Positions 65 through 13,751 of a DNA stretch of 64,000 bases are shown in pieces. Origin of the DNA: Burkholderiales bacterium (GTDB lineage Bacteria > Pseudomonadota > Gammaproteobacteria > Burkholderiales > CAIKXV01); contig JBBRCD010000001.1 of NCBI GenBank assembly GCA_038205245.1, positions 58,882 through 122,881 of the forward strand, in the 5' to 3' direction. Position 1 is the first letter of the stretch. Each line of letters begins with the position of its first letter. The position numbers were made by a program, and so were the translations under genes. Below the pieces are notes generated by a model, which was given only the letters and a program-made list of their open reading frames with translations, made no database searches and was not told the DNA's origin.

Positions 65-532
65 TCAGCTGGCGCGCAGGCGCCCCTTGATGAAACGCAG
101 CACCCCGCCCAACAGTGGAATTGACTCGTAGAGTTCTTCGGCCGTATCCCAGTAGTCCCGATGCCAGGTGACACGGCCATCAGCGGCAAACCTCAAGTGG
201 GATGCCCCGTGGATGCGTTGCACCGGCTTGCCAGGACGCAGCCGGTACTCCAGGTTCCAGGTGAGCCAGGCCTGCTCGCCGTCGACCGCGCGCTCGATGA
301 TCAGAAACCGGGGTTCGGTCAGCTGAACGAACATGTGCGCGAAGATGCGTGCAATCGCGGCACCGCCGCGCACCTGGTTGAACGGATCCTTGAAGCAGGC
401 GTCCGGCGTGTAGAAGTTGGCGACCTCGCCAACCGTCTCCGGGCTCAGCCCGGTGAACATCGCCTCCAGACGCGCCAGAGCCTCAGTGGTGTGCTCAGTG
501 GTGTGCACCGTGGCCTGCGCCGTGGTCTGCAT
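65..532 (-). CDS. NTF2/SnoaL-like family protein (distal gene of the cfa-type cluster)
   Basis: 155-aa ORF with coding-like composition. Only a 2-nt gap separates it from the upstream SDR gene. The family assignment is recalled from similar clusters; no catalytic motif was checked. Confidence 0.55.
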   Translation of the reverse strand: MQTTAQATVHTTEHTTEALARLEAMFTGLSPETVGEVANFYTPDACFKDPFNQVRGGAAIARIFAHMFVQLTEPRFLIIERAVDGEQAWLTWNLEYRLRPGKPVQRIHGASHLRFAADGRVTWHRDYWDTAEELYESIPLLGGVLRFIKGRLRAS

Positions 533-534
533 CG

Positions 535-1311
535 CTACAACCCGGTCACGCGCCGGATCAGCCGGAAGTACAGGCCGTAGGGCAGAAGGCGGAACAGCTT
601 CAGCCAGCGGGTGAATCGCTTCGGGAAGTGAATCTCGAAGCGGCCGCTGGCCAGCCCGTCGACGATCTGCTGCGCAGCCTCCTCGGCGCTGATCAGCGCC
701 GGCATCTTGAACTCGTTGCGATCGGTCAGCGGCGTCTTCACGAACCCGGGATTGACGACCCAGACGCCGATGCCGCGCGGGGCGAGATCGAGATACAGGG
801 TTTCGGCGAGGTTGATCAGCGCTGCTTTGGTCGCGCCATACACCAGGCTGGTCGGCAAGCCACGATAACCCGCCACCGACGAGCAGATCGCAACGCCACC
901 GGAACCCTGCTTGAGCATCTGCGGAACGACGACGGTCAATGCGTCGATCACCGACAACAGATTGGTTTCGACCAGCCGGTGCGCCACCGCGGAGTCCAGT
1001 GTCCAGGCGCGCACCGACTCGTGTGTACCCTGCAGGAACAGCGCGACATCGATGCCGCCCCAGGCATCCAGCATCTGCTCGAACCCGGCTTGGAGCTGCT
1101 CGCGGTTGGTGGCATCCAGCGGCAGTTCGAGCACGTTGGCCGGTCGGGTGGCAGCTGCGAGTTCATGCAGGGCCTGCGCGTTGCGGGCGGACACCGCCAC
1201 CCGCGCGCCGTGGGCAATCAGCAGCTTTGCGAGGGCAAGCCCGATACCGCTGCTGGCGCCGATCAACCAGACCCGCTTGCCTTTCCAGTCCCGGATCGGT
1301 GTGTTCAGCAT
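535..1311 (-). CDS. SDR family short-chain dehydrogenase/reductase
   Basis: N-terminal Rossmann motif 'LIGASSGIGLALAKLL' and catalytic 'YGATKAA' (YxxxK). The 258-aa length is typical. Confidence 0.85.
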   Translation of the reverse strand: MLNTPIRDWKGKRVWLIGASSGIGLALAKLLIAHGARVAVSARNAQALHELAAATRPANVLELPLDATNREQLQAGFEQMLDAWGGIDVALFLQGTHESVRAWTLDSAVAHRLVETNLLSVIDALTVVVPQMLKQGSGGVAICSSVAGYRGLPTSLVYGATKAALINLAETLYLDLAPRGIGVWVVNPGFVKTPLTDRNEFKMPALISAEEAAQQIVDGLASGRFEIHFPKRFTRWLKLFRLLPYGLYFRLIRRVTGL

Positions 1312-1343
1312 GGCAGCGATTCAGACTCGATCATCTTGTCGAT

Positions 1344-1850
1344 TCAGGCACGCATCGCGGTCGCGAGCGAAGCCAGCAGTAGGGACAGCAGTACGACCGA
1401 GGTCAGCACAGAGCGCAGTGCAAGGTACCACGAGGGTAGCGACAACACCGCCGAGACGCGGAAGTCCACCGCCAGTTGCGCGATGAAACCCAGGCCGAGC
1501 ATCGCCAATGCAGGCACGAACCCGACCGCCAGCGCCAGCCATCCCCATAGCGCGGGAACCACCGACCAGCCGAAGCCGAAGCGCGCCGCGCGCCCGTTAC
1601 CGCAGAGCAGCGCCAGACCCCAGTGGATGGCGCCGATGAAACTGAGGATCAGCGCGGCATAGGTGAGGACCGACCACTCCAGAGATGACCGCATCGGGCC
1701 GTCGACGAACCACAGCGCCAGCGCGCCGAGCAGGAAAGGCAGCAGCCCGCCCAGACCCGGAAGCAGCGCGGCGCGCGGGGCATCGCGCAGCGCAGCCAGG
1801 CCCGGACGCAGCGGACCGGCGGAGACCATCGCGCCGTCGCGCACGGTCAT
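1344..1850 (-). CDS. DUF3429-like polytopic membrane protein
   Basis: Only the C-terminal 168 aa of the 443-aa track ORF look real: hydrophobic helices and 'FIGAIHWGLAL'. The ATG at 1850 overlaps the stop of the upstream gene (ATGA). Confidence 0.65.
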   Translation of the reverse strand: MTVRDGAMVSAGPLRPGLAALRDAPRAALLPGLGGLLPFLLGALALWFVDGPMRSSLEWSVLTYAALILSFIGAIHWGLALLCGNGRAARFGFGWSVVPALWGWLALAVGFVPALAMLGLGFIAQLAVDFRVSAVLSLPSWYLALRSVLTSVVLLSLLLASLATAMRA

Positions 1851-2407
1851 TTTCGGGTGAAGCTCAGCGTCACCTGGCCCAGGCGGATGCCCCACTTGCT
1901 CATCACCGCAGTGTTGAGCATCACCCGATCGTCGATCAGGTACATCCAGTCGTCGAACTGCACATGCCATGTTCTGCCGGACACCGGCAGCGCGAGGGTA
2001 TAGGCCCAGTAAAGCGCGTTGCCATGGGCCTTGCCCTGGGCCACGCCGACCACATCGTCGGCGGTGCCGGTGTAGGTGTTCGCATCGACCTTGGTGATCG
2101 TCCACACCCGGCGCTGCTTCTCGCCATCGGACCACTCGAAGCGTTCGTCCAGGGTGCCCACATTGCCGTTCCACTTCGCATCGATGGTCACCACGAACCG
2201 GCGCTCGACCTTGCCCGAACGGCTCTGGAACATGCCGTGACCGATCAGGGTGCCGTTGAAATAGCGCTGCAGGTCGAGCACCGGCTTTTCGGCGGAGTAG
2301 ACCTGCGGATCGACCGACGCGCATCCTGCCAGCATCAGTGCCAACAGTCCCGCGGCGAACATCGAGGAACCGCGCGAACGGCAAACGGCGAGCAGACGAG
2401 CGAACAT
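1847..2407 (-). CDS. DUF3833-like lipoprotein
   Basis: Signal peptide with lipobox 'LMLAGC' after an internal Met (ATG at 2407). The conserved C-terminal part 'WHVQFDDWMYLIDDRVMLN' was recognised from cfa-associated clusters. Confidence 0.65.
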   Translation of the reverse strand: MFARLLAVCRSRGSSMFAAGLLALMLAGCASVDPQVYSAEKPVLDLQRYFNGTLIGHGMFQSRSGKVERRFVVTIDAKWNGNVGTLDERFEWSDGEKQRRVWTITKVDANTYTGTADDVVGVAQGKAHGNALYWAYTLALPVSGRTWHVQFDDWMYLIDDRVMLNTAVMSKWGIRLGQVTLSFTRK

Positions 2408-2427
2408 GGAAGACCTCCAGGAAGTGT

Positions 2428-3729
2428 TCAGAACCGCTGGGCTCGCCAGGCCTGCCAGAGCAAGGCTGCCGCGACCAGCTTGAGTGCACAAGGAACAACC
2501 GCATAAGTGAACGCCAGCGCGGCCAGCGCCTCGGCGTCCTGCGACCCGCGCAGGTAGCCCAGACCTTCAAGCAGCGGCAGCGCGATGCCCCCGGCGATCG
2601 CCAGGGTGAGCTTGTTGACGAAATTCCAGAGTCCGAAGTAGGCCCCTTCGCGCTGCCCACCATGGCCGTTGGCATCGATCACCCGCGCGAGCAGGGCCGG
2701 CGGCAGCGCGAGATCGGCGCCGAAAGCAACGCCGGACAGCACGCAGATCGCGGCAAAGCCCCAGAGCGCGCCTGCATCCAGCCAGTAAGCCCAGACGAAG
2801 GCCGCGACAGAGGCCAGCATGCCGATCAGCCAGACCACATGCAGGCTGTAGCGGCCGGCGAGCCGCACCCATAGGGGCATGCTGGCTGCGCCGGCAATAA
2901 AGTAAAGCGCAAGGAATGCGCCAGTGTAGCCAGCCAGCCCGAGGCGGTCGGCCACGAAGAACTGGAACACGGTTGCGGTGATCGAGGGCGCGACCGCGTT
3001 CAGCGCGAACACCAGCAGCAGCCAGCGAAAGCGGGAACTGGCAAGAGGCACCACGAAGCTGGCGAACGGGTTGCCACCGGCCGCCTGTCGCGCCCGCAAT
3101 ACCGACGCCTCGGTCCTCTGCGGCTGAGGCGCATAGCGAGCAAGCACGATGACACCAAGCAGCAGCGCCACCAGGAACACGCCGATCAATGCCGGCATGC
3201 CCACCGCCTGCGGCAGCACTGCACCGATCAGCACGCCGACCAGTCCCGCGCCTTCGCGTGCGCCGGTAATGCGTGCGCGGCCGGCATCATCGCCAGCGAG
3301 CTCGGAACCCCAGGCCTGATAGGCAACGATGCCGAGCGAATAGCCCAGGTAGGCGCCGACCAGCGTCACCGCCAGCCAGAGTGCGCTGCCGGCATCGCCG
3401 AGCGCGTCCGGCGGCGACAGCAGCAGCACGAAGCTCAGTGCCAGAACTGGCGCGGCAATGAAGATCGGCAGCAGATAGGAACCGCCGACCTTCTGCGCGT
3501 CCACCCAGGCGCCAAGCAGTGGGTCAGCGACGGCATCGACCAATCGGGTGGAGAACAGGACGATACCGATCAACGAAAGCGACAGGCCGGTGCGTGCGTT
3601 GTAGAAGTCGGGCAGCAGGATGTTGATCGGCAGTGCCGTCATCAGCAGCGGCACACTGAACATGCAATAGGCAGCGAGCTGCGCACCGGTCAGCCGTGCG
3701 TTCCCGGCCGGCAAGGGCTGTCCGGTCAT
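2428..3729 (-). CDS. MFS-type transporter (GPH/folate-biopterin-like)
   Basis: 433 aa with about 12 hydrophobic segments. Conserved position inside the cfa-type cluster. Confidence 0.75.
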   Translation of the reverse strand: MTGQPLPAGNARLTGAQLAAYCMFSVPLLMTALPINILLPDFYNARTGLSLSLIGIVLFSTRLVDAVADPLLGAWVDAQKVGGSYLLPIFIAAPVLALSFVLLLSPPDALGDAGSALWLAVTLVGAYLGYSLGIVAYQAWGSELAGDDAGRARITGAREGAGLVGVLIGAVLPQAVGMPALIGVFLVALLLGVIVLARYAPQPQRTEASVLRARQAAGGNPFASFVVPLASSRFRWLLLVFALNAVAPSITATVFQFFVADRLGLAGYTGAFLALYFIAGAASMPLWVRLAGRYSLHVVWLIGMLASVAAFVWAYWLDAGALWGFAAICVLSGVAFGADLALPPALLARVIDANGHGGQREGAYFGLWNFVNKLTLAIAGGIALPLLEGLGYLRGSQDAEALAALAFTYAVVPCALKLVAAALLWQAWRAQRF

Positions 3730-3735
3730 CTCGAC

Positions 3736-4332
3736 TCAGGTCTTGCCGAGCAGGCGGGCGCGTAGCTGCGGCTCGCGGGTCTTCGGATCGAGCCAGATCG
3801 CGAAGAACGCGGTGGCGAACGCCGGGTCGTCGATGGTGCCGAGCGCGCGGTCCTGGCTGAAGAAAGCGGCGCCTCCGCCTTTCAGGTACACCCCGATCAG
3901 CCGGTCGCCGCGGCCGACATTGGGAAACACCCGGATCATCGCCGCCAGCCAGCGCGCATGCTGCGCCTCGTCGGTAAAGCCGACCCGTTTCATCTCGGTG
4001 ATGCTGCTCTCTGCCAGCGCCTTGCCCGCGAGATCGCGTCCGTAAAGGATGTCGAGCGCGTGTACGTCGTCGGGCTCCCACTGCGTGCCGCGCGCCCAGA
4101 GCGCGACGTCGTACACATGCAGGCCAAACCAGCGCATGGTGCCGAAACCGATCCGCTTGAGGTCGCCTGTGGCCGCGACCACGGCTGGAGGCAGACGGGC
4201 CAACTGGGGCGGCCCGGCAGCCTGCAGCGACCCGGCCACGGGCAACGTCAATACGGGTGCCAGGGCAGCGAGCGCCAGCAGGCTGCCCAGTCGAAAAGCG
4301 GTGCGCCGACGATCCAGGCGGGAAGTATTCAT
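3736..4332 (-). CDS. Chalcone-isomerase-like family protein, secreted
   Basis: N-terminal signal peptide. 'FGLHVYDVALW...FFAIWLDPKTREPQLRARLLG' resembles the CHI-like family found in these clusters. Its start overlaps the upstream cfa gene stop by 4 nt. Confidence 0.6.
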   Translation of the reverse strand: MNTSRLDRRRTAFRLGSLLALAALAPVLTLPVAGSLQAAGPPQLARLPPAVVAATGDLKRIGFGTMRWFGLHVYDVALWARGTQWEPDDVHALDILYGRDLAGKALAESSITEMKRVGFTDEAQHARWLAAMIRVFPNVGRGDRLIGVYLKGGGAAFFSQDRALGTIDDPAFATAFFAIWLDPKTREPQLRARLLGKT

Positions 4333-5603
4333 CCCGGCGAACCGTTCATCGGACGCAACAGTTCGAAATGCAGCACATCGGTGCGACCGGAATCAAAGCC
4401 CGCCTCACAGTAGGCAAGATAGAAGCGCCACAGGCGGATGAACCGGTCGTCGAAACCGAGTGCACGAACTCGGGGCTCGGACTCGGTGAAGGTCTTGAGC
4501 CAGCGGCGCAGCGTCTCGGCGTAGTCGCGCCCGAACGCCTCGGTCGCCTTCACCTCGAGCCCGGCGCGATCGCTCTGCCGGACAAACTCGCTCTCCGAGG
4601 CGAGCATGCCGCCTGGAAACACATGCTGCTGGATGAAGTCGGTGCCGCGGCGGTAGCGCCCGAACACCTCGTCATGGATGGTGATGCCCTGGATCACCGC
4701 GCGCCCCCCCGGCTTCAGCGCATCGCGGATGGCGCGGAAGTAGGCTGGCCAGAACCGCTCCCCGACCGCCTCGTACATCTCGATCGACACCACATGGTCG
4801 AATTGCCCCTGAATGTCACGGTAATCGGTGAGCGTGAGTTCGGTCTGGCTGGACAGACCCGCCCCGGCAAGGCGCGCCTGGGCGTACTCCAGTTGCGCCG
4901 GAGAAATGGTGATGCCGCGCACCCGGCAGCCGCGCCGGGCCGCCACCTCGGCGAATCCGCCCCAGCCACAGCCGATCTCCAGGATGTGATCGCCCGCCCG
5001 CGCCTCCAGGCGATCGAGAATGCGTTCGTACTTGATCCGCTGCGCATCGTCCAGTGACCTGGACGCATCGCCGCCGAAGTAGGCCGATGAGTAGCTCATC
5101 GTCGGATCGAGCCAGAGTCGGTAGAACTCGTTGCCCAGATCGTAGTGCGCGACGATGTTGCGCCGGCTGCCAGAGCGTGTGTTGGCCCGCGACCAGTGGC
5201 GCAAGCGGTACCAGAGCACTGCGAACCAGTTGCCGTAGAACGCGCGCTCGATATGCTGCTGGTTGAGCAACGCAAGGGTGAGCAGATCGCTTGGCCGGTC
5301 GATGTCGCAGTCGCCCGCCATGTAGGCCTCGGCCAGACCGATGTCTGCGGTGCGCATTATCTCCTCCGCTGCAGCCCAGGAGCGCAGGGTCAGCGTCGCC
5401 TGCGGACCGGAGTCCGCGCCGAAACTCAGGCACTCGCGTTCGGGCGTGACCAGGTCGATACGGCCGATCTGGATCCGATCGAGCACCCGGGTGAGCAGCT
5501 GCCCGGCCGGGGGCATGGCGCTGCGCACCCGACGGGCTGTCTCCACGTCGGTGACCGGCCGGATGTCGCCGCCGCTGGACTGTTCGATAGTGACATCGTT
5601 CAT
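4329..5603 (-). CDS. cfa: Cyclopropane-fatty-acyl-phospholipid synthase family SAM-dependent methyltransferase (UfaM/Cfa-like)
   Basis: 424 aa with the SAM-binding motif 'HILEIGCGWGGFAEVAA' and CFA-synthase-like N- and C-terminal regions. Confidence 0.9.
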   Translation of the reverse strand: MNDVTIEQSSGGDIRPVTDVETARRVRSAMPPAGQLLTRVLDRIQIGRIDLVTPERECLSFGADSGPQATLTLRSWAAAEEIMRTADIGLAEAYMAGDCDIDRPSDLLTLALLNQQHIERAFYGNWFAVLWYRLRHWSRANTRSGSRRNIVAHYDLGNEFYRLWLDPTMSYSSAYFGGDASRSLDDAQRIKYERILDRLEARAGDHILEIGCGWGGFAEVAARRGCRVRGITISPAQLEYAQARLAGAGLSSQTELTLTDYRDIQGQFDHVVSIEMYEAVGERFWPAYFRAIRDALKPGGRAVIQGITIHDEVFGRYRRGTDFIQQHVFPGGMLASESEFVRQSDRAGLEVKATEAFGRDYAETLRRWLKTFTESEPRVRALGFDDRFIRLWRFYLAYCEAGFDSGRTDVLHFELLRPMNGSPG

Positions 5604-5661
5604 CGATACTGCCTTTCTAGTAGGTGGCGGTGGCCGCCGCGGTCGGCGCTCACCGGGATGC

Positions 5662-6462
5662 TCAACGCGTGGTGGTCTCGATCGGCGGCACCGGCTTGCG
5701 GTGGTACACCGCCCCCTTCCACCAGAGCCGGATCGCCTGCAGATGGATGCGCCCGATGACCCCGGCCATCAGCCAGGGCAGGCGAAGAAAGGATCGTGCC
5801 AGGCACCGGTCGGTCAGCGGCTGCGCGGCACCGGACAGCGAGGTGGTCAGCTCGAGCGCACCGGCACGCGCATAGTCGATGCGAAACAGGGTGCGCTGGG
5901 CGTCCTCGTGAAACCGGAACCGGTACTCGCCATCGACCGGGAAGAACGGAGAGACATGGAACACCTTGTGCGCCCGCAGACTCTGACCGGTACCGATCGG
6001 CGCCGAATCCGCGCAGGCCACCATGTAGTTGTGGTGCTCGCCGAACGTGTTGCTCACTTCGCACAGTACCGCGCGCAGCCGGCCGTTGCGGTCATGACAC
6101 ATCCAGAAACTCACCGGATTGAAGACGTAACCGAGCACGCGCGGCAGCGTGTAGAGCACGATCTCGCCGTCGGCAACCTGCAATTGATGATCGACCAGCA
6201 GCCGCCGGATCCAGTTCTGCAGGGACGACCCGTCGCGCGCGCCGTAGTCGCGGCGATGCAGGCTGAACAGATTGAAGCGATCGATGCCGAGCAGCCTGGG
6301 CCCCGACGCGGACTGCCCGGACTGCACGGACTCGAGCCAGGAAAGCGGCACCCGCAGGAAGAATGCCGGGTAGCGGAAGGCGTGTTCGAGCGGCGATAGC
6401 CGCCGGTGCAGCACCTCGCCCGCGCAGACCGCCGGAGATACCAGCCCGACCGGCATCCTCAT
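5662..6462 (-). CDS. DUF1365 family protein (UfaO-like)
   Basis: 266 aa. 'HRRLSPLEHAFRYPAFFL...YVFNPVSFW' is typical of DUF1365. Its start overlaps the upstream gene stop by 4 nt. Confidence 0.8.
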   Translation of the reverse strand: MRMPVGLVSPAVCAGEVLHRRLSPLEHAFRYPAFFLRVPLSWLESVQSGQSASGPRLLGIDRFNLFSLHRRDYGARDGSSLQNWIRRLLVDHQLQVADGEIVLYTLPRVLGYVFNPVSFWMCHDRNGRLRAVLCEVSNTFGEHHNYMVACADSAPIGTGQSLRAHKVFHVSPFFPVDGEYRFRFHEDAQRTLFRIDYARAGALELTTSLSGAAQPLTDRCLARSFLRLPWLMAGVIGRIHLQAIRLWWKGAVYHRKPVPPIETTTR

Positions 6463-7871
6463 GCGGCGCCCGCCAATCGGGGCCCTGCGGACGCATGGCC
6501 GCTGTCGGACGCCGTCCAGGGGGCGTGCACACCAAGTTGCGCGGCCACGGCAAGCGCCGACTTCAGACCGTCCTCGTGAAAACCATAACCGGTCCAGGCA
6601 CCGCAGAACCAGGTGCGGCGCTGACCCTGGATTCCGGGCAGGCGCTGCTGCGCGACCAGCGCCGGGGCGTCCAACACCGGGTGTGCATAGTCGAACCGGG
6701 CGATCACGCGATCGGCCGCAATCGGGCGGTGCGGATTCAGCGTCACCATCACCGGAGTGCGCATCGGCAACGGCTGGAGCCGGTTGATCAGGTAGGTCAC
6801 GCTGACCGACCCCGGCGCCGCGCTGGTCGCCGCGCTTGCCGGTGAACTGGCCACCGCGCTGGTCGCCGCACCGGCCACTGGGTTGGCCACCGGATCGCCT
6901 GGCGAAGCAGCGTCAGCGGCCGCGCCATTCCCGGAGAAGTTCCACGCGGCCCAGGCACTGCGCGAATCGGGAAGGAACCCGGTGTCGGTGTGCAGCCAGG
7001 CATCGTTGGGCTGATAGCGGATTGCCTCGAGCACGGCGCGTTCTTCGCTGCTGGCGTCGCCGAGCAGCGCCAGCGACTGATCAGAGTGTGTAGCCATCAC
7101 GATCTGGTCGAAACGCTCGACCTGCCCCGCGGCAGTCACTTCGACCGCGTCCGCCGTTCGCCGCACGCCGGTCACTGGCGTTGCCAGCCGCACGTCGTCC
7201 AGGTCAGCGAGCAGCCGGCGCACATACTCGCGCCCGCCACCGGTGACCGTCATCCAGCGCGGCCGCCGGGTGATCTGGAGCAGCCCGTGATTGACGAAGA
7301 AGCGGATGAAGCTTGCCGCTGGAAACGCGCGCATCGCGCCCATCGGGCAGGACCAGATCGCGGCCGCCATCGGCAGCAGGTACCAGTCGCAGAACTCCCG
7401 GCTGTAGCGCCCGCGTTCCAGGAATTCGCCCAGGCTGATCTGCCCGCTGTCGGGCGTCTCGGCAAACGCCGGTGCCGTGCGGTTGAAACGCATGATGTCG
7501 GCAAGCATCCGCCAGAACCCGGGACGGGCCAGGTTGCGCTTCTGGGCAAACAGCGCGCCGATCGACGTCCCCGCCCACTCGAGCGATTCACGCTCGATGC
7601 GCACGCTGAACGACATCTCGCTGGTCACCGAAGCCACGCCGATCTGCTCGAACAGGGCGATCAAGTTGGGATAAGTACGCTCGTTGAACACCAGGAATCC
7701 GGTGTCGACCGGCGCACGCACCCCTTCGAGTTCGACCTCGACCGTGTTGGTATGCCCGCCTGCATACGCGCCTGCTTCGAACAAGGTCACCCGGTGACGC
7801 TCGCGCAACAGCCAGGCGGCCGCCAGCCCGGAAATGCCCGCCCCGACGACCGCGATCGATGTTCTATGCAC
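6459..7871 (-). CDS. FAD/NAD(P)-binding amine-oxidase-like oxidoreductase (UfaD-like)
   Basis: N-terminal dinucleotide fold 'IAVVGAGISGLAAAW'. 470 aa. First gene of the minus-strand cluster. Confidence 0.85.
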   Translation of the reverse strand: MHRTSIAVVGAGISGLAAAWLLRERHRVTLFEAGAYAGGHTNTVEVELEGVRAPVDTGFLVFNERTYPNLIALFEQIGVASVTSEMSFSVRIERESLEWAGTSIGALFAQKRNLARPGFWRMLADIMRFNRTAPAFAETPDSGQISLGEFLERGRYSREFCDWYLLPMAAAIWSCPMGAMRAFPAASFIRFFVNHGLLQITRRPRWMTVTGGGREYVRRLLADLDDVRLATPVTGVRRTADAVEVTAAGQVERFDQIVMATHSDQSLALLGDASSEERAVLEAIRYQPNDAWLHTDTGFLPDSRSAWAAWNFSGNGAAADAASPGDPVANPVAGAATSAVASSPASAATSAAPGSVSVTYLINRLQPLPMRTPVMVTLNPHRPIAADRVIARFDYAHPVLDAPALVAQQRLPGIQGQRRTWFCGAWTGYGFHEDGLKSALAVAAQLGVHAPWTASDSGHASAGPRLAGAA

Positions 7872-8334
7872 CCGCTTTTTCCTCTTGTCTGCAGGGCGTC
7901 CATGACGTACCCGCCCTGCCCGCGATACGTCCGGATCCGCGAAACAGATGTTTGCGCGGACCGCAACCTGCTTCTCAACTGAGCCTGTCTACCGAGCCGG
8001 CAACGACTCGAAAATTCGCCAAACCGCCGATGGTAATCGAGCGCTATCCGGCTGCGTTGGATCGGCCGCTGTCTTGTTGTCCGGGCGGAGGTTACCCGGT
8101 CACCCGGCGCCCCACCCGCTTGCGTCGTTCTCGCATGCCGATTGCGTCGCGCGGGGCGCTCCCGCATCATCTGCCCGGCGGGACCCGGTGCACGCCGCCC
8201 AGCCCTCGAGGCCGCGTTCGAGCGCGGGCCTGTCCAGGCCTGCCGGCACCGGTTGAACGGGCATGTTTGTCCATGTCAATACCGGGTTTCCATGTACTGT
8301 TCGGGTTCTGCACTCACTTTGTCGACTCTATATC

Positions 8335-9264
8335 ATGGACATTAAACCTCTGGTGGCAGAACAACCTGGTGCGGAACGACCGCCGGTGAACATCAGTTCG
8401 GTGGAACGCGATACCGGACTGTCCAAGGATGCCCTGCGGGTCTGGGAGCGCCGCTACGGCTTTCCCCAGCCCTACCGGGACGCCCACGGCGAACGCATCT
8501 ATCCGTCCGATCAGGTCGACAAGCTCCGGCTTTTGAAGCGACTGCTTGACCAGGGACATCGACCAAGCAAGATCATTGCCAAGTCCATCGACGAATTGAG
8601 CGCCCTGTGCACCGAGGCGGAAAGTCCGTCTCATAGCACGGAAGTGGAGGCGCTGCTCAGGCTGATCAGGGCGCACCAGTCGGTCGAACTGCGCCAGACA
8701 CTGAACCAGGCACTGCTACGTGACGGGCTGCGCCGGTTCGTCATCGATCTGGTCGTGCCAGTGAACCGCGCGGTCGGCAATGCCTGGATGCGCGGCGATA
8801 TCGCGGTGTTCGAGGAGCATCTGTACACCGAGCAGATGCTCGGCATCCTGCGCAATGCGATTGCCAGCATCCAGCTTCGCGGGCACTCGCCGCGGGTTCT
8901 GCTTACCACGCTGCCGACCGAACAGCATGGCATGGGCCTGCTGATGGCCGAGGCCCTGCTCACCCTGGAGGGCGTCTACTGCGTGCCGCTGGGGGTCGAG
9001 ACGCCTGCCGCCGACATCGTTGCGGCCGCACTCGCGCACGATGTGGACATTGTCGCGATATCCTTCAGTGCCGCCTTCCCGGCGCGCCTTGCCACTGGCA
9101 GCATTCGCGAACTGCGCGAGATGCTGCCCGCGCGCATCGCGCTGTGGGTGGGCGGTGACGCAATGTTGCGCGCACGCACCCCAGGCGAAGGCATAGAGGT
9201 CGTGCGCAGTCTTGAGCAGATCATCGAAGCGCTCGGCGAGTGGCGGGCGCGCCTTTCCGACTGA
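8335..9264 (+). CDS. MerR-family regulator with C-terminal cobalamin-binding domain (CarH/LitR-type candidate photoreceptor)
   Basis: MerR HTH 'ISSVERDTGLSKDALRVWERRYGFPQP'. Wx9EH motif 'WMRGDIAVFEEH'. B12-binding 'TEQHGMGLLMAE...VDIVAISFS' (ExHxxG). The internal ATG at 8335 is preferred over the track start at 8263. Confidence 0.8.
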   Translation: MDIKPLVAEQPGAERPPVNISSVERDTGLSKDALRVWERRYGFPQPYRDAHGERIYPSDQVDKLRLLKRLLDQGHRPSKIIAKSIDELSALCTEAESPSHSTEVEALLRLIRAHQSVELRQTLNQALLRDGLRRFVIDLVVPVNRAVGNAWMRGDIAVFEEHLYTEQMLGILRNAIASIQLRGHSPRVLLTTLPTEQHGMGLLMAEALLTLEGVYCVPLGVETPAADIVAAALAHDVDIVAISFSAAFPARLATGSIRELREMLPARIALWVGGDAMLRARTPGEGIEVVRSLEQIIEALGEWRARLSD

Positions 9265-9311: not shown

Positions 9312-10184
9312 ATGCTCTACCCGAAGATATTCGTCCAGCTGGAAAAGGTCCGCTGGAACATGGCAGACGATGTCCCTTGGGACAGCTTCGACGCTTCGCG
9401 CCTCAGTGATGAGCAGGCGACGACGATCAAGATGAACGCAATCACCGAGTGGTCGGCACTTCCGGCCACCGAGATGTTCTTGCGCGACAACCGCCATGAC
9501 AGCGATTTCTCGGCGTTCATGTCGGTCTGGTTCTATGAAGAGCAGAAGCACTCGCTGGTGCTGATGGAGTATCTGCGCAAGTTCCGTCCGGACCTGCTGC
9601 CCACCGAAGCCGAGTTGCACGCGGTGCGCTTCGATTTCGACCCTGCGCCCTACCTCGAAACGCTGACCTTGCATTTCTGCGGCGAACTGCGGCTGACCCA
9701 GTGGTATCAGTGTGCAGCCGAATGGCACACCGAGCCGGTGATCCAGCATATCTATCGGCTGATTTCCCATGACGAGGCACGACACGGTGGGGCTTACCTT
9801 CGCTATATGCAGCAGGCGATCGCCAGGCTGGGTGACGAAGCCCGGCGCGCGTTCGCCAAGGTCGGCGTGCTGATGGCCTCGGCGGGCCGGACCGGCCAGC
9901 CCCTGCATCCGACCAACCTGCACGTGAGCAAGGCACTGTTCCCGAACGACACGGTGCAGAGCCGGCTCCCGGATCCGGCGTGGCTGGAGCGCTGGCTCGA
10001 CGAGCAGATCCGCTTCGACAAGGGCTGGGAAACCAAGGTTGTCGGATCGATTCTGAAGAAGCTGTCGACGCTGCTTGGCGAGAGCTTCGACACAGTGCAG
10101 TCGCTCAATCGCTACCGCAAGGTGCTCAATGCGTCGCTGGCGGCCAGCGGGGGCACGCCCCCGGGCACGCCGGTCACGGCCTGA
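9312..10184 (+). CDS. Ferritin-like di-iron carboxylate protein (desaturase/oxidase-like), function unknown
   Basis: Two ExxH motifs ('YEEQKH', 'HDEARH') plus upstream Glu residues ('ITEW', 'CGEL'). The ATG at 9312 lies 48 nt after the regulator stop. Confidence 0.7.
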   Translation: MLYPKIFVQLEKVRWNMADDVPWDSFDASRLSDEQATTIKMNAITEWSALPATEMFLRDNRHDSDFSAFMSVWFYEEQKHSLVLMEYLRKFRPDLLPTEAELHAVRFDFDPAPYLETLTLHFCGELRLTQWYQCAAEWHTEPVIQHIYRLISHDEARHGGAYLRYMQQAIARLGDEARRAFAKVGVLMASAGRTGQPLHPTNLHVSKALFPNDTVQSRLPDPAWLERWLDEQIRFDKGWETKVVGSILKKLSTLLGESFDTVQSLNRYRKVLNASLAASGGTPPGTPVTA

Positions 10185-10664
10185 GTGGTAACAGCAGCAT
10201 TCGAGCGCAAGTGCTGTGCGCCGGACGAGGCGGTCAGGCGGGCAGCCCGCCTGCCGGCGCCGACCGTCTTCACCAACGGCTGCTTCGACCTGTTGCACCG
10301 TGGTCATGTCACATATCTCGATCAGGCGCGCGCGCTGGGCGCCTCGCTGATCGTCGCGCTCAACACCGATGCTTCAGTCAAGCGTCTGGGCAAGGGCGAT
10401 GACCGCCCAGTGAACGAGCTTGAAGACCGGATGGCGGTGGTTGCCGCGCTGGAGAGCGTCGACCTGGTCACCTGGTTCGACGAGGAAACGCCGCTTGCCC
10501 TGATCGTCTCGCTGGCGCCTCAGGTGCTGGCCAAGGGCGGCGACTGGGCTGTCGAGCGGATCGTCGGCGCGGCGCAGGTGCAGGCCAGGGGCGGCACGGT
10601 GGTGTCCATCCCGTTCGTCCACCAGCGCTCCACTACCGGGCTGCTGGCGCGGATTCGCGACTGA
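10185..10664 (+). CDS. rfaE2: D-glycero-beta-D-manno-heptose 1-phosphate adenylyltransferase (stand-alone RfaE domain II / HldC)
   Basis: Cytidylyltransferase motif '[17 protein letters not shown]'. 159 aa. GTG start immediately after the preceding stop. Confidence 0.85.
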
Positions 10665-11146: not shown

Positions 11147-11357
11147 CGCCTTCCCCGGGGGAGCGCCCGACTTTTCGCGGGCGCGTTGGATACATTACAC
11201 CTTCCACAACGCTCTGACCTTGCGCGGCGTTTACCTTGCCACCGGTCTGGCCCGCGGCGCGACCCGGGTGAGTCGTGTTCGGACGAATCTGCTGTCGCAT
11301 CACTGGACGGTGGCGCGATCGATTAACATTGGGCACCGGGTGCAGGGATTGCGCGCA

Positions 11358-13751
11358 ATGAGCAGTGAACCCAATCAAGGTGGTGACGCGTCCGATACGC
11401 TGGCCGGGCAGCTGGCCGGGCAGCCAGCCGATGCGGCGCCCGAGCGCGTTGCCGACAGTGCCCAGAGTGGCGAGCCCGCCCCCCAGCGAGAGCTGATCGC
11501 CAGTCGCGTGCTGCTCGGCATGATCGCCAGCGGCGCCAGCCTGCCGGATGTGCTCGGCGCCTTGTGCAAGAACATCGAGGCGCAGGCGCCGGGCGCGCAT
11601 TGCGCGGTGCTGTTGATCCGGGATGAGCGCGTCCATGTTGCCGCCGCGCCCAGCCTGCCGGAAGCCTACAACCAGGCGATGGACCGGTTGCCTATCGGGC
11701 CGCAGGCCGGGTCATGTGGCAGCGCAGCCTACACCGGGCGGCAGGTGATCGCGCAGGACATTGCCACCCATCCTGCCTGGGTCACCTACGCGCAGATCGC
11801 GCTCAAGCACGGCCTGCGCGCCTCGTGGTCGACGCCGATCCTGGGTACCGCAGGCAAGGTGATGGCCACCTTCGCCGTCTACTACCGCGAACCCAGAGCC
11901 CCGGCGCAGCGCGAACTGGACCTGGTCAACGGCGCCACGGACCTGGCCAGCATCGTGATCGAGCGTGATCGGTCCGCCGCCGCGCTGCGCGACAGCGAGG
12001 CAAGCTATCGCGCGCTGGTGGAGACGGCACCGCTGGGCATCTTCGTCCTGACCAGGGACCGGTTCGTCTACTCGAACGCCGCCCTCGCCCGCATGCTCGG
12101 CGCGGCGAGCACCACCGAACTGATCGGACGCAGCATCGTTGGCCATGTGCAGCGCAGTTCCAGGGCAGGGCTGGCCGAGCGTCTGGCGCACACCGGCAGG
12201 CGCGGCACGACCACCCGGGTCGAGGTAAGGCTGCTGCGCATGAACGGCACCGAGTTCGAGGCCGAAATGATCGCCACGCCGATGAGTTTCGGCGGTGCGC
12301 ATTCGATCCAGTGCATGGTGTCCGACATCTCGGAGCGCAAACGCACCGAGAAGCGAATCAACTACCTTGCCCACTTCGACGATCGCACCGGCCTGCCGAA
12401 CCGCAACCTGTTCGTGGACCGACTTGCGCAGGCTCTCGGCCATGCGCAGCGAAGCGGCAAGGCAGTGGCGCTGCTCTATCTTGACCTGGACCGGTTCAAG
12501 ACGCTGAACGACACGCTCGGCCATGCCGCGGGCGACGTGCTGTTGCGCGCGGCAGGCACCCGACTGACCGAGTGCGTTCGTGCGCACGATACGGTGGCAA
12601 GACTTGGCGGCGACGAGTTCGCGCTCATCCTCGCTGATCTGGCCCAGGCAGAGCAGGCAGAGACCGTGATCGCGAAGATCTTCCAGGCGTTCGAGCGGCC
12701 GTTCACCGTCGAGCGCCGCCAGCTGTTCGTGACACCGTCCATCGGCATCGCCGCCTACCCGCGCGACGGTGCCACCCCGGATCTCCTGCTCAAGCATGCC
12801 GATATCGCGATGTACCGCGCGAAGGCGGCGGGCAAGAACACCTACCGCTTCTACCTGCCCGCGATGGGGCTTGGCCTGTCCGAGAGCCTGGCACTGGAGA
12901 CCGACCTGCCGGGCATCCTGGAGCGCGGCGAACTCGAGCTCCACTACCAGCCGCAGGTCGACGGTGCGACTGGCGATACGGTCGCGGTCGAAGCTCTCCT
13001 GCGCTGGCAGCACCCGCAGCGCGGCGAGCTCACCCCCGAAGCCTTCATTCCGCTGCTGGAAGAGACCGGGCTGATCCGCAGCGTGAGCGCCTGGGCGGTA
13101 CGCCGCGCCTGCCGTGACGCGCGCACCTGGACCGACAGCCGCGGGCGTCCACTGCGCCTCGCGATCAATCTGTCGGCGAGTCAGTTCAAGGATCCACGAC
13201 TCGCCGAACTGATCGAGCAGATCGTCACCGACACCGGCTTCGACCCGCGCCGGCTGGAGTTCGAGATCACCGAACACACACTGATGGAAGACACCAAGGG
13301 CACGCTGGACACGCTGCGCGCCCTGGCCAATCTGGGCACATCGATTTCGGTGGATGACTTCGGCACCGGCTATTCGTCACTGTCCTACCTCAAGCGGTTT
13401 TCGGTGCAGCGGCTAAAGATAGACCGCTCGTTCGTGGCCGAGATCGCCGAGAAGCGCGATACCGCCGCCATCGTCGAGGCGATCATCTCGCTCGCCCGCA
13501 GCCTCTATATCGAAGTGGTCGCCGAGGGTGTCGAGACCGCCGAGCAGCGCGACTTCCTGCTCTCGCACGGCTGCTCGGTGATGCAAGGCTACCTGTTCCA
13601 TCCAGCGCTGGCACCCCAGAAGCTGGAAGCCCTGCTGGCCGCAGGCGCGGGCCTGCGTGCGGTAACCACCAATGGCGGCACGCCAGTACAGGCACCTGCA
13701 GCCGGGCCGTCGGTTGCCGGCGTCACCCCGTTCAGAGCGCGCTCGGTCTAG
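11358..13751 (+). CDS. GAF-PAS-GGDEF-EAL cyclic-di-GMP signalling protein
   Basis: 'RLGGDEFALIL' (GGDEF); 'VAVEALLRW' and 'DDFGTGYSSLSYL' (EAL); PAS/GAF-like N-terminal half. Internal ATG at 11358 chosen. Confidence 0.9.
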   Translation: MSSEPNQGGDASDTLAGQLAGQPADAAPERVADSAQSGEPAPQRELIASRVLLGMIASGASLPDVLGALCKNIEAQAPGAHCAVLLIRDERVHVAAAPSLPEAYNQAMDRLPIGPQAGSCGSAAYTGRQVIAQDIATHPAWVTYAQIALKHGLRASWSTPILGTAGKVMATFAVYYREPRAPAQRELDLVNGATDLASIVIERDRSAAALRDSEASYRALVETAPLGIFVLTRDRFVYSNAALARMLGAASTTELIGRSIVGHVQRSSRAGLAERLAHTGRRGTTTRVEVRLLRMNGTEFEAEMIATPMSFGGAHSIQCMVSDISERKRTEKRINYLAHFDDRTGLPNRNLFVDRLAQALGHAQRSGKAVALLYLDLDRFKTLNDTLGHAAGDVLLRAAGTRLTECVRAHDTVARLGGDEFALILADLAQAEQAETVIAKIFQAFERPFTVERRQLFVTPSIGIAAYPRDGATPDLLLKHADIAMYRAKAAGKNTYRFYLPAMGLGLSESLALETDLPGILERGELELHYQPQVDGATGDTVAVEALLRWQHPQRGELTPEAFIPLLEETGLIRSVSAWAVRRACRDARTWTDSRGRPLRLAINLSASQFKDPRLAELIEQIVTDTGFDPRRLEFEITEHTLMEDTKGTLDTLRALANLGTSISVDDFGTGYSSLSYLKRFSVQRLKIDRSFVAEIAEKRDTAAIVEAIISLARSLYIEVVAEGVETAEQRDFLLSHGCSVMQGYLFHPALAPQKLEALLAAGAGLRAVTTNGGTPVQAPAAGPSVAGVTPFRARSV

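Follow-up and report, generated by a model that had tools for sequence, protein, structure and literature searches.

A CarH/LitR-type regulator encoded divergently from a putative furan-type lipid operon in Burkholderiales

Introduction

Furan fatty acids are produced on phospholipid acyl chains by a pathway comprising UfaM, a methylase of the CMAS family, UfaD, an NAD/FAD-binding desaturase that resembles phytoene desaturases, and UfaO, a DUF1365 protein that uses O2 (PMC7380195). All three have been defined biochemically, with UfaM making 11Me-12t-18:1, and in Rhodopseudomonas palustris the genes RPA2571-2569 follow the order ufaD-ufaO-ufaM (PMC7380195). In Pseudomonas, light regulons defined experimentally for LitR proteins contain phrB, ufaM, folE, an FAD oxidoreductase and a short-chain dehydrogenase (PMC9758184). 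LitR proteins themselves fall into three classes: class I binds adenosylcobalamin (AdoB12, or AdoCbl), class II retains only the four-helix bundle and class III is without a B12 domain (PMC9758184). Here we describe a locus from a Burkholderiales bacterium, lying within the 64,000-nucleotide stretch of DNA that was analysed (GenBank assembly GCA_038205245.1, contig JBBRCD010000001.1, positions 58,882 to 122,881; hereafter the window), in which the gene for a regulator resembling class I LitR, the CarH type, is divergent from nine genes that begin with members of the UfaD, UfaO and UfaM families.

An initial annotation of this DNA had predicted that light, acting through a B12-dependent regulator, triggers the remodelling of membrane lipids by the adjacent operon. 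That interpretation is supported by the analysis reported here, with caveats on the quality of the operators and on the position equivalent to His132 of Thermus thermophilus CarH (TtCarH). Two points of background given in the annotation are borne out by the literature, in which sigma-E/ChrR control of the furan pathway is described (PMC7380195) and LitR-family light regulons include ufaM (PMC9758184). On balance, we think it probable that an AdoCbl-dependent, light-sensing repressor of the CarH type controls the nine-gene furan-type lipid operon.

Results

The regulator has the domains, motifs and predicted fold of CarH

The regulator gene (8335..9264, plus strand) encodes a 309-aa protein in which Pfam, at gathering cut-offs exceeded by all ten proteins of the locus, identified a MerR_1-type helix-turn-helix (PF13411, 44.9 bits, residues 19-80), a four-helix bundle (B12-binding_2, PF02607, 30.7 bits) and a Rossmann-type B12 domain (B12-binding, PF02310, 33.8 bits against a cut-off of 32.1). 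The helix-turn-helix aligns with the DNA-binding domain of TtCarH, and the comparison with TtCarH (5C8D) extends across residues 19-300 at about 29% identity (E 2e-29). Both motifs associated with AdoCbl are present. The Wx9EH motif WMRGDIAVFEEH (8785..8820, plus strand, residues 151-162) supplies the adenosyl-capping residues and aligns with W131/E141/H142 of TtCarH, while the ExHxxG motif EQHGMG (8920..8937, plus strand, residues 196-201) carries the lower axial His ligand and aligns with H177. A light-responsive signature of GxxW, EH, GxxH and GxxxP has been described (PMC11796333); the regulator has GxxW, EH and GxxxP, and its GxxH is without the Gly.

We then aligned the regulator with 68 relatives, taken from 69 loci in public genomes and 45-88% identical. 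GxxW, EH, ExHxxG, GxxxP, GG and SxS/F are kept in all 68, and the start codon at 8335 is shared with 12 close relatives. An AlphaFold 2 model built from 59 sequences (predicted local distance difference test score, pLDDT, 88.7) found full-length TtCarH as its best match in the PDB when searched with Foldseek (5C8E and 5C8D, E 1.8e-17), and the B12 domain of TtCarH superimposes on it with a template modelling (TM) score of 0.80-0.84 and a root-mean-square deviation of 2.6-2.7 Å. Domains, motifs and predicted fold therefore agree with the CarH/LitR assignment given in the initial annotation. Judged from its sequence, the protein is a class-I-like LitR in the scheme of PMC9758184. We infer that it binds B12 and responds to light, and that it very probably uses the vitamin as its light sensor.

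The pairing of regulator and operon is widespread in the order

To see how far the arrangement extends, we searched the same 69 loci with the window proteins by tblastn. The divergent operon-regulator pairing is found in 42 of them, including loci from Rhodocyclaceae, Accumulibacter and the cultured Uliginosibacterium aquaticum, and it is kept across regulators that are only 45% identical. In several loci folE2 and a glutathione peroxidase gene lie between regulator and operon, with a photolyase gene 3' of the regulator; where the operon is missing, its place is taken by folE2 or by a gene for a Rieske oxygenase or a lipase-like hydrolase. These neighbours are the gene types of the Pseudomonas LitR light regulons.

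A second sample consisted of 151 genomes of the order, evenly sampled and each at least 90% complete; since related genomes are not independent, the counts that follow are descriptive only. The regulator occurs in 47 of the 151 genomes (33 of 99 genera) and DUF1365 in 64, with both present in 43. In 31 genomes, that is in 31 of the 47 bearing the regulator, the two genes are adjacent within 6 kb. Among the 87 genomes without DUF1365, the regulator was found in four. Six genomes without this regulator subfamily were inspected: two have a more Thermus-like CarH near the cluster, with the motifs GERWEKGDGTVAEEH and PGERHEAG, and one (L097) has a MerR protein without B12 domains there. The regulator-operon arrangement is widespread in the order and not special to the host genome. 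The ChrR anti-sigma factor was detected neither in the host nor in any of the 151 genomes, and a Caulobacter control was positive.

Two palindromes bracket divergent promoters in relatives

The control regions of 41 related loci share a common architecture. A 13-bp palindrome, TTGTCCnGGACAA, is present twice upstream of the regulator gene (litR), with a spacing between the copies of 61-63 bp in 34 of the 41 loci (exactly 63 in 28) and of 73-74 bp, one helical turn more, in the remaining seven. A rightward promoter has as its -35 element T(G/A)GACA, which is the right half of site 1, followed by a 17-nt spacer and a -10 of the form TAnnAT. On the other strand, a perfect TTGACA lies 4 nt from site 2 and heads a leftward promoter (TTGACA-N17-TATnnT), whose -10 overlaps that of the rightward promoter. 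Promoters scoring 8/12 or better were found in 41 of 41 loci for the rightward direction and in 39 of 41 for the leftward. From this layout it follows that both operators have a double position: each overlies the -35 of one promoter and sits immediately downstream of where the other starts.

In 19 loci that have the cluster, a third palindrome lying 170-230 nt upstream of litR was considered as a further site. In L029 it falls inside the open reading frame of a small secreted protein, where it encodes Val-Leu-Asp-Asn, and we did not count it as an operator. That reading frame (L029, 9626-9917, minus strand), which has equivalents in L021 and other Rhodocyclaceae loci, is conserved, about 97 aa long and provided with a signal peptide; it heads the leftward unit and abuts operator site 1, and its coding sequence holds the near-perfect copy of the operator palindrome.

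The window has the same control layout in degenerate form

The intergenic control region of the window spans 463 nt (7872..8334). Together with its 12 closest relatives, the window has the operator and promoter layout just described, in a degenerate form. Putative operator site 1, TTGTCCATGTCAA (8267..8279), differs from TTGTCCnGGACAA at two positions, occupies the same place as site 1 of the 41 loci and is the sole match with two or fewer mismatches to the family palindrome within the 64-kb window. Putative site 2, ATATCATGGACAT (8330..8342), lies 63 nt from site 1 and overlaps the litR start codon. It is a remnant with four mismatches: its left half is lost and its right half, GGACA (8337-8341), is intact, which may also reflect coding constraint, as these bases specify Met-Asp.

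The putative litR promoter (8273..8300, plus strand) has its -35, ATGTCA, inside site 1, followed by a 16-nt spacer and the -10 TACTGT (7/12). The putative leftward promoter (8296..8325, minus strand) combines the -35 TCGACA with an 18-nt spacer and the -10 AACAGT (8/12). Both occupy the same places as their counterparts in the 41 relatives, and the leftward -35 stands at a constant distance from site 2 in 13 of 13 members of the window's clade. If the leftward promoter is used, the leader of the ufaD transcript would be about 420 nt long. When the spacer was aligned with 11 relatives, conserved blocks appeared only near litR, apart from one block resembling a -10 element. Because the operators are worn and the promoters weak in the window, direct regulation of the nine genes is, for this genome, something that we infer.

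Other signals were sought in the spacer. Structured leader RNA was not found there, as judged by the absence of an Rfam match, of a consensus structure in 10 sequences and of unusual folding stability (z-score -0.16). A promoter of the sigma-E/ChrR type (TGATCC...TAAGA) had no acceptable spacing when the sequence was read, and ChrR is absent; this candidate was dropped. Three copies of GTCCATG were likewise set aside as a signal. They form one of only two such clusters in the genome, the copy near ufaD falls in an insertion specific to the window, and the other cluster lies inside coding sequence.

An inverted repeat with GC-rich arms of 8 bp (GCAGGGCG / CGCCCTGC) encloses TCCATGACGTACC at 7891-7919, at a distance of 27 nt upstream from the start of ufaD. 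None of the 11 aligned relatives has the roughly 80 nt in which it sits, and it may represent a small inserted element or a hairpin in the leader, in either case particular to this genome.

We also asked whether the regulon extends further in the host, and dropped the idea. When one mismatch is allowed, the 11-bp core palindrome occurs 115 times and is no commoner than its reversed control (118), and the 13-bp palindrome was not found in the host genome; nor were sites found upstream of the two photolyase genes or of the second CMAS gene. The genome's only perfect core palindrome, TGTCCTGGACA, lies between ppsR and bchG on contig C213 (L072, 1501-1511), beside TGTCA-rich PpsR-like sites. With about 1.8 such matches expected by chance (an estimate from base composition) and no adjacent promoter, we treated it as a chance occurrence.

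The operon encodes UfaD-, UfaO- and UfaM-family proteins

The first 9.3 kb of the window hold, by the list of open reading frames, nine co-directional genes on the minus strand and the single divergent regulator gene on the plus strand. These ten genes, the two B12 motifs and the 463-nt spacer all stand at the positions assigned to them in the initial annotation. What it described as tightly overlapping is a set of three 4-nt overlaps together with gaps of 2, 6, 20, 32 and 58 nt.

The operon begins with a gene for a UfaD-like FAD-dependent fatty-acyl desaturase (6459..7871, minus strand, 470 aa), which has an N-terminal GxGxxG and matches Amino_oxidase (PF01593) and NAD_binding_8 (PF13450). 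Its NCBIfam hits are weak ones to the HpnE/CrtI family, and the match to UfaD holds at the family level only. The UfaO-like DUF1365 gene (5662..6462, minus strand, 266 aa; PF07103, 253 bits over its full length) overlaps ufaD by 4 nt and is present in a single copy in the host genome. It is followed by a gene for an S-adenosylmethionine (SAM) methyltransferase of the cyclopropane fatty acid (CFA) synthase family (4329..5603, minus strand, 424 aa; CMAS, PF02353, 270 bits), which is UfaM-like by position and finds its best PDB matches among CFA synthases. The three genes therefore belong to the UfaD, UfaO and UfaM families, as the initial annotation had it, and their order is that of R. palustris RPA2571-2569. 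From family membership, the three enzymes would most likely yield furan-type lipids.

Conserved accessory proteins and a possible step outside the cytoplasm

Six further genes complete the operon, all on the minus strand. The first encodes a chalcone-isomerase-like (CHI-like) protein (3736..4332; Chalcone_3, PF16036, 40.9 bits) in which we read a Tat-type signal, RRRTAF, so that it is predicted to be periplasmic. It is followed by an MFS_2 transporter (2428..3729, 433 aa; PF13347, 190 bits) and a DUF3833 lipoprotein (1847..2407; PF12915, 226 bits). For the latter, a GGAGG ribosome-binding site and the lipobox LAGC make 2407, and not 2491, the most likely start. The DUF3429 membrane protein (1344..1850; PF11911, 107.6 bits), whose start was chosen by inspection of start codons, overlaps the DUF3833 gene through an ATGA. 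A short-chain dehydrogenase/reductase (535..1311, 258 aa; adh_short, PF00106, 132 bits) and a SnoaL_2/NTF2-like protein (65..532, 155 aa; PF12680, 64 bits) come last. A convergent gene, with its end at window position 46, leads us to place the end of the operon at 65.

By tblastn the accessory genes are conserved in relatives, with DUF3429 found only in the window's own clade. Of all the operon's proteins DUF3833 is conserved best, with 59-66% identity in distant loci, and exceeds UfaD and UfaO in this respect. Its AlphaFold 2 model (pLDDT 86.6) is a 10-stranded beta-barrel of the calycin/nitrobindin/fatty-acid-binding-protein type, and Foldseek places it, at TM scores of about 0.6, beside BFA1, the fatty-acid-binding-like Ycf58, the spirocyclases OssO and OlmO, and nitrobindin. 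Two accessory proteins, one of them this lipoprotein, are predicted to be extracytoplasmic. Taken together, the DUF3833, CHI-like, MFS and DUF3429 proteins suggest that a hydrophobic ligand is handled outside the cytoplasm.

Host genome and neighbouring genes

The host genome comprises 4.79 Mb in 303 contigs at 65.6% G+C, and is most closely related to lake metagenome bins. Among its genes are those for the reaction centre proteins PufL and PufM, together with bchG, ppsR and an AerR-like B12 protein. As it has genes for a reaction centre and for bacteriochlorophyll, singlet oxygen is a real hazard for this host. Its B12-related genes include those for MetH and a PduO-type adenosyltransferase, and a single cobalamin riboswitch lies upstream of a TonB-dependent receptor gene; with this adenosyltransferase and the riboswitch-linked receptor, AdoCbl can be made from imported corrinoid.

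Downstream of the regulator, a gene for a di-iron, ferritin-like protein (9312-10184) starts after 48 nt. No terminator was found between the two, so read-through from litR is possible. Identity of the protein across Ottowia, Laribacter, Cupriavidus and Chitinimonas is 73-80%. We considered whether it might belong to the light system and set the idea aside, since in Laribacter and Cupriavidus it is paired with an rfaE-II-like gene and has no litR within 6 kb. It is a housekeeping neighbour that forms a conserved pair with the adenylyltransferase gene of rfaE-II type. The 290-aa protein resembles acyl-ACP desaturases, with a PF03405 match on a short stretch only, and has no solved relative. In the window the di-iron gene and the rfaE-domain-II-like adenylyltransferase gene (9312-10664) follow one another without a gap. 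About 560 nt further downstream lies a gene for an 843-aa GAF-PAS-GGDEF-EAL protein of ordinary type (11220-13751).

Discussion

A model for light control of the lipid operon

In the model that we favour, the regulator would be present in the dark as a B12-held oligomer on two operator sites about 63 bp apart, which flank a pair of overlapping sigma-70 promoters that point in opposite directions, one for its own gene and the other directed towards the operon. Light would cleave the Co-C bond and lift repression, and both the regulator gene and the operon would then be transcribed. The SAM methylase, the FAD desaturase and the O2-dependent DUF1365 protein would act on existing phospholipid acyl chains, giving methylated, di-unsaturated and most likely furan fatty acids that scavenge singlet oxygen, to the presumed benefit of a bacteriochlorophyll-containing host without a ChrR/sigma-E singlet-oxygen system. 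At the outer face of the inner membrane, binding, transport or further processing of the modified or oxidised lipid would probably fall to the six accessory proteins.

Several observations weigh against parts of this model, and each lends something to a different explanation. The first concerns the product. Regulation might be as proposed and the operon yield a lipid other than a furan fatty acid, such as a methyl-branched, cyclopropane or conjugated-diene chain, or a derivative that is processed or exported with the help of the accessory proteins. The CMAS protein scores below every NCBIfam Cfa equivalog cut-off and could be UfaM, FufM, Cfa or an enzyme like RSP1089, alternatives that its sequence does not tell apart; in addition, a second CMAS paralogue, 34% identical, is encoded on contig C20. 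In the published pathway no function corresponds to the six conserved accessory genes, conservation of DUF3833 is higher than that of UfaD and UfaO, and the spirocyclases OssO and OlmO are among its structural neighbours. Against this, homologues of UfaD and UfaO, which are specific to furan ring formation, are both present as single, well-scoring copies, and deletion of RSP1087-1089 in R. sphaeroides left the furan fatty acid profile unchanged, so that these accessory genes are dispensable for the known product (PMC7380195). We regard a different lipid as rather unlikely, while giving it appreciable weight.

A second explanation is that the regulator only regulates itself in this genome, with the operon under a separate promoter and the adjacency inherited without being functional. 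The control sites of the window are weak, with two mismatches in site 1, four in site 2 and promoters at 7-8/12, the one beside site 2 reaching only 8/12; the spacer is 463 nt long, compared with distant relatives in which about 80 nt separate the divergent starts. Of the leftward blocks resembling a -10 element, the best conserved, GCTCGATTAnnATC (minus strand, about 8030-8043), lies some 290 nt from the operators without an adjacent palindrome, and may be an alternative or even the real ufaD promoter. Moreover, a copy of GTCCATGACGTACC near ufaD falls in an insertion specific to the window and absent from all aligned relatives. Yet an adjacency of no consequence sits poorly with a pairing that outlasts so much divergence between regulators, and with the fixed distance between the leftward -35 and site 2 throughout the clade. 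In two members of that clade (L055 and L011), furthermore, a second TTGTCTAG-type half-operator lies mid-spacer, nearer ufaD. Autoregulation alone consequently appears unlikely to us. These same two relatives have a separate TGTCA-N9-TGACA palindrome mid-spacer (about 9835-9860 in L055; columns 305-340 of the alignment), and from their extra sites it can be seen that the operator content of the spacer varies among close relatives.

The remaining difficulty for light-controlled repression lies in the regulator itself. There is no equivalent of His132: the residue following the W is Met152, and the 68 relatives have Met, Ser, Val, Ala, Glu or Leu there and never His, with no substitute invariant His in the four-helix bundle among the aligned sequences. 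A 2023 study found ligation by His132 to be critical for light-driven disassembly of the TtCarH tetramer, H132A being mostly tetrameric after illumination; the same paper quotes an earlier study in which H132A did disassemble, which leaves the role of His132 unsettled (PMC10442372). The Gly of the GxxH signature, a residue whose contact is through the main chain only, is replaced by Thr195 and is found in 32 of 68 relatives. Also on the negative side, the NCBIfam CarH equivalog model (NF052513, TransRegCarH) gives 138.2 bits against a cut-off of 400, and a CobA-type adenosyltransferase was not found in the host. The differences at His132 and GxxH could mean that the protein may not disassemble in light and binds B12 without acting as a light switch, reporting cobalamin, redox or ligand state as AerR-type proteins do, but this is improbable given that the adenosyl-capping W and EH, relevant only to AdoCbl, are invariant, that the relatives' neighbours are the light-damage genes photolyase, folE2 and glutathione peroxidase, and that the earlier H132A result points the other way.

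A possible variant of the CarH switch

If the regulator is a light-sensing repressor as we propose, its switch may differ in geometry from that of characterised CarH proteins. We put forward, as a tentative idea that is more likely wrong than right, that in this large betaproteobacterial subfamily the B12-held oligomer bridges two 13-bp palindromes six helical turns apart, looping out or covering the face-to-face promoters, and that its light state is reached without bis-His ligation through His132. If true, B12 photoreceptor-repressors would come in a second mechanistic type, and the locus would be a compact, natural, bidirectional light switch. With palindromic operators and no His132, the subfamily offers a natural test of the photo-disassembly model of CarH, and we know of no member of it that has been studied so far. 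The combination of promoter-bracketing palindromic operators with the missing His132 is what we regard as the foremost interest of the locus.

The inputs known for furan-type photoprotection operons are singlet oxygen, via ChrR/sigma-E, and LOV-dependent or B12-independent LitR; a B12 photoreceptor would be a third, and would extend the function of CarH beyond the control of carotenoids. About a third of the genomes sampled from this major order, to which freshwater phototrophs and Accumulibacter belong, have the regulator subfamily. The 76-bp control region, in which two operators enclose two promoters, is a candidate green-light-responsive switch for bidirectional expression. In addition, the conserved extracytoplasmic accessory proteins provide a lead to an unstudied step in the handling of modified or oxidised membrane lipids.

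Comparison with known systems

With CarH/class I LitR (T. thermophilus, 5C8D/5C8E; Myxococcus xanthus, Bacillus megaterium and Streptomyces), the regulator shares the three-part architecture, the fold, and the W-x9-EH, ExHxxG, GxxxP and GG motifs. Like those proteins, it is encoded beside its presumed targets and has an operator overlapping its own -35. The operators are of different kinds: in Thermus and Bacillus, CarH operators are three or four tandem 11-bp direct repeats of nAnnTnnACAn (PMC8156234), whereas here there are two separated 13-bp palindromes, and a tandem 11-bp repeat register did not fit the relatives' control regions. The targets of CarH are carotenoid genes, in contrast to the fatty-acid-modification operon found here.

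The class II LitR proteins (PplR1-3 of Pseudomonas putida and PmlR1/2 of P. mendocina) likewise adjoin a cluster induced by light, which contains ufaM along with genes for an FAD-dependent oxidoreductase, a short-chain dehydrogenase and hypothetical proteins, and their regulon also includes phrB and folE, as do relatives of the window locus (PMC9758184). They consist of the four-helix bundle only, have no need of B12 and rely on a short LOV partner protein to sense light (PMC9758184). The window regulator is unlike them in having both B12 domains, with the Co-ligand and adenosyl-contact residues intact. The light-induced genes of class III LitR in Burkholderia multivorans include a cfa-like gene, folE2 and phrB. 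That bacterium belongs to the same order and its regulator to the same LitR family, but the C-terminus of the protein is without similarity to B12 domains and its light-sensing mechanism is unknown (PMC9758184, citing Sumi et al. 2018).

On the side of the enzymes, Rhodobacter sphaeroides RSP1091-1087 with UfaM and R. palustris RPA2571-2568 comprise the same families, followed by accessory genes, in bacteriochlorophyll-containing hosts (PMC7380195). The Rhodobacter operon is controlled by singlet oxygen through sigma-E/ChrR (PMC7380195), while the window host has no ChrR, and the window operon has more accessory genes, namely those for the CHI-like, MFS, DUF3833, DUF3429 and SnoaL proteins. 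In the blue-light regulon of Vibrio cholerae, the CFA-synthase-like gene VC1122 and photolyase genes are induced with the involvement of a MerR-like regulator (PMC5241685). There, however, control by ChrR/sigma-E and the MerR-like protein is attributed to reactive oxygen species and not to a B12 photoreceptor (PMC5241685).

A literature search that left out much of the subscription literature returned no paper on a B12-type CarH/LitR controlling this operon. Each module of the locus is known, and LitR control of similar clusters is known for the B12-independent classes; the proposed wiring of such a cluster to a B12-type regulator is new.

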